A DNA stretch of 59,045 bases, the filler included, from Dugesia japonica (taxonomy: Eukaryota): NCBI GenBank assembly GCA_001938525.1. It is 6 parts of 6 records of this genome, joined end to end, with 100 filler letters (N's around TTAATTAATTAA, not from the genome) between each part and the next. Parts side by side here need not be neighbours in the genome. Positions count along the whole stretch, not along the records: positions 36,443 to 44,914 come from MQRL01503205.1; 5 more parts are not named here. One strand, 5' to 3'. The notes below the pieces were generated by a model, which worked only from the letters and a program-made list of their open reading frames with translations, was not told where the DNA came from and did not search any database. The position numbers and the translations under genes were made by a program. Below are positions 38,708 to 38,744 of this stretch, in pieces. Each line of letters begins with the position of its first letter. Positions within the stretch are counted from its first letter, which is position 1.

Positions 38708-38744
38708 CAATTCGATATTTCGACCTTGTCTTCGTCAGGAAATG
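38708..38744 (-). ncRNA. Minimal type-I hammerhead ribozyme (Penelope-like-element type), intact core
   Basis: Minus-strand RNA CAUUUC-CUGACGA-A-GAC(AAG)GUC-GAAAU-AUC/GAAUUG: conserved core, stem II, palindromic AUAU in place of stem III, stem I with one mismatch. Confidence 0.8.

Follow-up and report, generated by a model that had tools for sequence, protein, structure and literature searches.

The window analyzed here, a stretch of 59,045 nucleotides from Dugesia japonica (assembly GCA_001938525.1), comprises six short scaffolds, each of 21-27% GC and separated by artificial spacers, and is rich in microsatellites and transposon remnants. A minimal type I hammerhead motif is located at 38708..38744 on the minus strand with a predicted cut between 38714 and 38713, and its presence there, noted in a preliminary description of this DNA, was confirmed. 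The motif consists of a CUGACGA core, an extra A, a 3-bp stem II (GAC-AAG-GUC), GAAA, the tetramer AUAU and C17, with the core and H17 defined as in the accessible portions of PMC3088659 and PMC6155905. Stem I forms five of six base pairs as its 5′ arm, CAUUUC, produces a U-U mismatch.

The motif is carried by a repeat whose coordinates are given relative to the longest copy, 48588..48738, on the minus strand. A profile search of the window recovered six distinct loci of this repeat on four of the six scaffolds. The resulting density is one per 9.4 kb (Poisson 95% range for the six loci, 2.2-13.1); the earlier estimate was roughly one copy per 10 kb. The focal copy (38664..38751, minus) is a short form that lacks a tail and has seven extra nucleotides at its 5′ junction (38752-38758). 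The 151-bp long form at 48588..48738 terminates at both of the family-wide ends and includes a hammerhead at 48695-48731. The other loci, all on the minus strand, are a short-form copy with a decayed core that is flanked by a 12-bp repeat with one mismatch (11071..11166), a diverged long-form copy with an AAUU tetramer and U17 whose 5′ part is cut by a scaffold end (27754..27882), a copy with a G5A core whose 3′ part is lost in a gap (47380..47441), and the short-form half of an inverted composite in which the core is broken at an assembly N at 52053 (51974..52073). A 22-nt plus-strand sequence at 41153..41174 is a possible, but uncertain, 3′-end fragment that scored E 7e-5 in one search and E 0.34 in another. 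About seven copies on four scaffolds had been counted previously. The number of scaffolds stands, but the seventh copy (51712-51725) lies within a segment, 51712-51882, that is 100% identical over 171 bp to 52054-52224 on the other side of a gap. Because this identity takes in unique flank, 51712..51882 most likely is an assembly duplicate instead of a further copy.

The full hammerhead core is kept at only two of the six loci, where the motifs at 38738 and 48725 pass a minimal-hammerhead descriptor. At 48695-48731 the core is intact and stem I has all 6 bp, but the tetramer, ACAU, is non-palindromic and position 17 is A. The AUAU palindrome described previously applies to the focal copy and to the bulk of the family, but not to this copy. 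Elsewhere, an N interrupts stem II of the motif at 52031-52067, that at 11125-11160 has G5A, A9C and G12A changes and a 1-nt deletion, that at 47402-47438 combines G5A with a mismatched stem I, and that at 27857-27882 is cut by the scaffold end with AAUU and U17 in phase. The motif string proposed initially is the family consensus, although none of the six loci matches it fully. Descriptor matches were found in none of 40 simulated windows of order 1 and in one of 40 of order 3, which gives a chance expectation of ≤0.025 per window. An Rfam search of the window returned no hammerhead at E values up to 10, and four unrelated weak matches. MFE folding recovered the active hammerhead structure neither in full units nor in the 37-nt motif of the focal copy, and formed stems I and II in the 37-nt motif at 48695-48731; the MFE result is uninformative for a motif that would depend on dimerization or a protein. 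Overall the data fit a repeat that carries a minimal type I hammerhead motif of the kind found in Penelope-like elements (PLEs), with cleavage predicted from the sequence. The minus-strand motifs at 11125-11160 and 47402-47438 share both G5A and a UAA loop II, and G5A occurs at <4% in the contig set X1 introduced below; this pair (n = 2) may point to an earlier subfamily whose core was already dead as it spread.

The ends and abundance of the unit were assessed by comparing four of the 24 public same-species runs listed, namely contig sets X1 and X2 and RNA read runs X21 and X22, with positions 48460-48900 at 80% likeness. The two contig sets yielded 25,359 (X1) and 24,598 (X2) mapped contigs. 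Summed word depth, which is not a copy number, reached up to 1.48 million (X1) and 1.64 million (X2) over the unit, compared to 8.95 and 11.7, respectively, in unique flank. The raw ratio of unit to flank depth was 1.0-1.65 × 10^5 and, when divided by 31 for overlapping contigs, gave a rough floor of ~3,400-3,800. Thousands of copies or more are likely, and 10^4-10^5 copies are plausible. Loose ends accumulated at 48587/48588 (150 + 266 contigs in X1) and 48737/48738 (186 + 391 in X1) in both contig sets, with consensus agreement of 0.43-0.49 beyond the unit ends. Contigs collapse identical sequence, however, and a long parent represented by a single contig could go unnoticed where loose ends number in the hundreds. 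The same pile-ups were evident in the raw RNA reads of X22 (125 + 250 at 48587/48588 and 170 at 48738; agreement 0.43-0.47). The low agreement at loose ends indicates that the flanks are unrelated between copies. Summed depth dropped >1000-fold one bin beyond each end of the unit. Within the window, all five loci with a readable 5′ end begin within 4 nt of one another, and this fixed end precedes C3 by 13 nt and the predicted cut by 38 nt. The shared unit of ~100-150 bp that had been proposed is a discrete unit of ~151 bp with sharp ends and unlike flanks, and with a short form of about 87-100 bp.

Natural variation in the 37-nt motif was monitored in X1, in which 26 of 31 variant places were listed. 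Variants were present at N7 (10.7%), loop II (36%), the last base of stem I (47%) and G12 (6.4%). The tetramer was AUAU at ~87% and AAUU at 12.8%, with positions 15.2 and 16.2 both changing at an equal share, and the AAUU share was 12.9% in X2 and about 22% in X22; the AUAU/AAUU switch may be a single event. Position 17 was C at 44.7% and U at 4.6%, the rest being the reference A. In a tally by kind of change, neither G17 nor changes of G5, G8 or G10.1 attained 4% in X1, and G12 was the only core position with a variant of at least 4% among the places listed. General CpG decay was considered as a source of G12A, but is unsupported as G8 also is in a CpG yet has no variant of at least 4%. Among the places listed, five of the six variants above 10% fell in the eight tolerant positions of the motif (P = 7e-4), as did five of seven at a 4% cut (P = 0.002). 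These values become 0.035 and 0.055 in the worst case, in which the five remaining X1 variant places all are constrained, and are to be read with the provisos that the tolerant class was defined after the variant table was inspected and that young subfamilies dominate the depths. Excess conservation of the core over its flanks, a check set out in the preliminary description, was not evident as a raw count of variable positions in the core and in the rest of the unit (1/13 vs 12/114, P = 0.61; second count, 0/13 vs 9/114, P = 0.37), but the pattern of variation inside the motif fits that expected of a hammerhead. Compensatory changes in stems I and II were absent at all nine pairs in seven window rows. 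Loose ends at 48705 reveal a subfamily that runs on as AAUU, C17 and an altered 3′ arm of stem I. The focal 5′ arm CAUUUC would pair with most of this altered arm, and a compensatory stem I change may exist. Several variants at 48639-48659, together with the AAUU tetramer, reach about 15-22% in the RNA reads of X22 but only 1-13% in contigs, the runs being from different samples.

The anatomy of the insertions was examined at loci with assessable flanks. Repeats resembling target-site duplications (TSDs) were present at three of four such loci, and were compared to a null of AT-rich random positions (600 trials). The focal copy is bordered by a 15-bp repeat with one mismatch at 38649..38663 (3′ side) and 38759..38773 (5′ side; null 4/600), the 11-kb copy by a 12-bp repeat with one mismatch at 11059-11070 and 11170-11181 (null 26/600), and the 52-kb composite by a 10-bp repeat with one mismatch at 51964-51973 and 52124-52133 (null 122/600, which is weak alone). 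No flanking repeat of ≥7 bp lies within 20 nt of the full-length copy (48588-48738). All three TSD-like repeats set the 3′ end at one position of the unit (nt ~87), within 1 nt, whereas the 48-kb and 27-kb copies and the inverted piece described below reach nt ~151. Two 3′ ends accordingly define a unit of about 87-100 bp, or of about 151 bp with an optional tail of ~64 nt (48588..48651, minus) that includes a 9-bp hairpin at 48598-48620. The short 3′ end did not appear among the loose ends listed from the public runs. At one of the six window loci, an inverted, 5′-truncated, tail-only piece on the plus strand (52075..52122) abuts the 5′ end of 51974..52073 head-to-head. On each strand, the flanking repeat of this composite has ATT at its 3′ terminus, a match of little weight alone as ATT is a common word in the window DNA. 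Among the joints listed from the public runs (15 of 64), six were strand switches, all of which landed at 48737-48740; the strand-switch joints were represented by 18 contigs in X1 and 15 in X2. L1-style twin priming was set aside for the composite at 51974-52122 because two other loci share the short 3′ end without an inversion. TSD-like repeats, two 3′ ends and a head-to-head composite are hallmarks of PLE insertion. These features were absent from the preliminary description and provide the strongest links between the repeat and PLEs.

The comparisons with known systems that follow are based on the accessible portions of the cited papers. Minimal hammerheads were described in the pseudo-LTRs (pLTRs) of metazoan PLEs (Cervera and de la Pena 2014, PMC4209133). 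The repeat shares with these motifs the CUGANGAH core, the extra base before stem II, the G10.1-C11.1 pair, the palindromic 15.2-16.2 tetramer and NUH, as well as U-rich and AU-rich flanks and occurrence mostly as single dispersed motifs (PMC4209133). With 3 bp and a loop of 3 nt, its stem II differs: of 56 representatives in Fig. S3 of that study, one other has a 3-bp stem II (C. briggsae, 5-nt loop) and none has the sequence of the repeat. Single motifs were taken there as probably truncated PLEs, whereas the repeat has a fixed 5′ end. The Poseidon element of Anolis carolinensis, PAc (Frangieh et al. 2024, PMC11167929), offers a further parallel. Its protein cuts both strands at ATT and initiates reverse transcription at two internal sites that bound the tail, with uncleaved RNA as the dominant template. 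Like the repeat, PAc carries its hammerhead 5′ of a pair of 3′ ends between which the tail lies, has a stem-loop close to the terminus, inserts at AT-rich targets and shows no RNA-seq ends at the cut site. However, PAc is autonomous with an RT-EN ORF and a tail of 30-40 bp, whereas the repeat has no such ORF and a tail of ~64 nt, and the two are likened here by description (PMC11167929). More generally, PLEs show an optional tail, inverted head-to-head or 5′-truncated copies at the 5′ end, and variable TSDs (PMC3846280, PMC8557442). Head-to-head inversion and an optional tail also characterize the solo and inverted pLTRs of Penelope in Adineta vaga, where TSDs are 8-10 bp and a pLTR is sufficient for integration in trans (PMC3846280). 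The A. vaga pLTRs measure 193-218 bp, and several solo pLTRs, which are without TSDs, were ascribed to recombination or deletion (PMC3846280); the short units here, by contrast, come with TSD-like repeats of their own and are much more numerous. The non-autonomous elements of Chlamys, e.g., MRC1, are a precedent for PLE derivatives that share the 3′ end of their partner, although these elements are green algal, generally lack a canonical hammerhead and often are multicopy head-to-tail (PMC8557442).

A potential partner was sought within the window and beyond. Among 139 window frames (stop-free and of at least 58 codons, with one cut to 25), Pfam gave no match to a PLE reverse transcriptase or GIY-YIG domain, in agreement with the initial observation that no reverse transcriptase is nearby. 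The only related match was PF17919, an RNase H-like domain of reverse transcriptase, at 32164-32379 (minus; E 2e-8), and this frame presumably is an LTR-element remnant that is unlinked to the repeat. An autonomous PLE is defined by an ORF between pLTRs, and the 151-bp unit has unrelated flanks and no RT-EN ORF. Motif pattern scans gave no match in a first scan of metagenomes, in two scans of viral contigs or in genome contigs. The sole match of a second metagenome scan, L001, reads like coding sequence without a stem I and was rejected as due to chance. No description of a short-unit family like this one was found in the literature searched, Repbase and Dfam being outside the search, and prior annotation of the family is quite possible.

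The descriptor match, the depth and the insertion features together support the earlier suggestion of a non-coding retroelement of very high abundance that carries a minimal hammerhead motif of PLE type, as far as sequence can establish. The probable explanation, favored with moderate confidence, is that the repeat is a short non-autonomous PLE derivative, in effect a free-standing pseudo-LTR, that is moved in trans by a PLE RT/GIY-YIG protein whose gene lies at another site. Evidence against this reading includes the absence of an autonomous partner from the window, collection scans that were empty or yielded chance matches, the full-length copy that lacks a flanking repeat, the frequency of 10-bp repeats by chance, the mostly read-through RNA described below, and the lack both of compensatory stem changes and of a significantly more conserved core. 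In the proposed pathway, an internal promoter may drive an RNA that would begin at the fixed 5′ end; a word near this end is taken here to be Initiator-like. A PLE protein from another locus would bind the 3′ part of the RNA and nick AT-rich DNA on both strands, 10-15 bp apart. Reverse transcription would begin at one of two internal sites and would run through the uncleaved hammerhead to the first base of the RNA, and priming from both nicks would generate an inverted composite. That units start 38 nt before the cut and keep the core indicates that the template was uncleaved RNA. The hammerhead may cut only as a dimer, by way of the palindromic tetramer, and this cutting would lie off the path that yields these copies because cleavage would strip the core from the 3′ product. 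The 5′ end fixed 13 nt upstream of the core argues that the copies are neither randomly truncated tails nor retrozyme monomers. The source of the RNA rather probably is a set of short master copies and, with less likelihood, the leader or tail of an autonomous parent, PLE chemistry being common to both.

The second of these sources would make the copies dead-end by-products of an autonomous PLE and not a self-propagating family, through the same insertion chemistry acting on another source RNA. Either reverse transcription would start internally near the 5′ end of a parent mRNA, such that only the pLTR leader is copied, or 3′ tails would be cut at a strongly preferred point. This explanation is somewhat unlikely. 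In the accessible text of PMC11167929, reverse transcription of the anole element starts 111-118 nt into an ORF that begins at stem II, and the two ends of the repeat fall ~66 and ~130 nt beyond stem II. In the literature, truncated remains of PLEs are the default reading (PMC4209133), and a source under selection would account for the hammerhead-like variation. However, no common continuation past either end was evident in the uncollapsed RNA reads, as shown by the agreement of 0.43-0.47. The long form terminates in an open frame of 22 codons, and the pLTR plus tail in A. vaga likewise covers 22 codons (PMC3846280), but five of eight polymorphic positions in the frame alter the amino acid, as would be consistent with an absence of coding constraint, although this is a weak point as N-termini are loose. 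The two loci that share G5A and the UAA loop (n = 2) also count against this explanation in that they hint at a dead-core source.

The RNA-seq runs X21 and X22 were chosen by species label. Approximately a quarter of X22 and ~6% of X21 were read. Reads that map to 48460-48900 numbered 1,988 of 13.59 million (X22) and 56 of 10.54 million (X21), in both orientations, of which 93% (X22) and 96% (X21) continue into unlike sequence. Among the positions listed from the two runs, there were no pile-ups of read starts or ends, including at the cut site, which these libraries are ill suited to test. Because the RNA is mostly read-through and no start pile-up was listed, the data do not support a free transcript of unit length. 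The RNA signal fits passive read-through, and a short non-polyadenylated RNA would probably escape these libraries.

These RNA data also bear on the proposal, which is very unlikely, that the copies derive from a tandem non-LTR retrozyme as its scattered monomers, spread via cleaved, circular RNA. Non-LTR retrozymes resemble the repeat in being short, non-coding and PLE-related with a type I hammerhead, but occur as tandem arrays processed to circles, whereas the repeat is dispersed with ends off the cut site (PMC7229834; 10.64898/2026.07.22.740005). Retrozymes were defined with canonical hammerheads in tandem in the available text of PMC7229834, although families can be largely monomeric and pLTR-derived (10.64898/2026.07.22.740005). 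A head-to-tail joint (48738 to 48590, with 14 letters between) was present in both X1 and X2, but at approximately single-copy depth, and none of the joints listed (15 of 64) was represented by an RNA read. None of the six window loci is tandem, with the proviso that short-read data under-report arrays, and the units begin 38 nt upstream of the cut site and not at it. The retrozyme and circular-RNA branch of the preliminary description thus was not sustained: the unit ends are off the cut site, the window copies are single, and RNA joints and end pile-ups were absent among those listed. A DNA-based element of MITE or Helitron type, or a non-PLE SINE, with an accidental or vestigial hammerhead look would explain the fixed ends, the hairpin 10 nt from the 3′ end, the lack of an Rfam match and the damaged cores of most window copies, but is equally improbable in view of the absence of a terminal inverted repeat from the unit, the long, variable TSD-like repeats and head-to-head inversions, the descriptor chance of ≤0.025 per window and the concentration of five of six common motif variants in tolerant positions (P = 7e-4; worst case 0.035).

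The trans-mobilized PLE derivative can be taken a step further, tentatively, as the PLE-dependent equivalent of a SINE. In this possible extension, a free pLTR of ~150 nt with its own internal promoter and 10^4-10^5 dispersed copies would replicate only from uncleaved RNA. Source copies would keep a dimer-competent hammerhead that serves to bind protein through its fold or to brake replication in a concentration-dependent manner, and not for processing, and the inverted composites would record priming on both strands at two sites of reverse transcription initiation in vivo. The purpose of the hammerhead and the origin of tails and inverted pLTRs are named as open questions for PLEs in the accessible portions of PMC8557442 and PMC11167929. 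The unit is a minimal candidate template for PLE trans-mobilization. Its very many junctions, its two 3′ ends and the variants that occur naturally in its core and tetramer, all within 150 bp, amount to a compact mutagenesis experiment run by nature. Published work already covers this class of ribozyme, its scattering as lone motifs, solo pLTRs and PLE derivatives that are non-autonomous, and the surprise is limited as both the ribozyme class and the PLE link were known. The fixed 5′ end, the TSD-like repeats around short units and the very high abundance are distinct here.

Other elements are scattered in the window. A RING finger frame at 17619-17834 (minus; PF13920, E 2e-14) possibly is a host exon. 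A search for homologs of the frame at 50991-51287 gave no match. Broken frames at 4754-8188 (plus), 23891-27131 (plus) and 28129-28530 (minus), in which Pfam matched only N-terminal zinc fingers, are taken here to resemble Polinton/Maverick-type protein-primed polymerase regions, and 5404-5803 and 24644-25037 are 67% alike. An integrase core fragment at 735-1070 (minus; PF00665, E 6e-12) has a 66% similar copy at 45495-45978. Remnants of DNA transposases at 15692-16003, 52345-52680 and 57106-57729 (all minus) gave weak Mos1-type HTH and DDE_3 matches, and the 52-kb frame (52345-52680) presumably is hAT-like. Additional inverted-repeat elements are located at 23442-23679, 20323-20614 and 19358-19676/21347-21640, one of which is composed of 31-bp tandem units.
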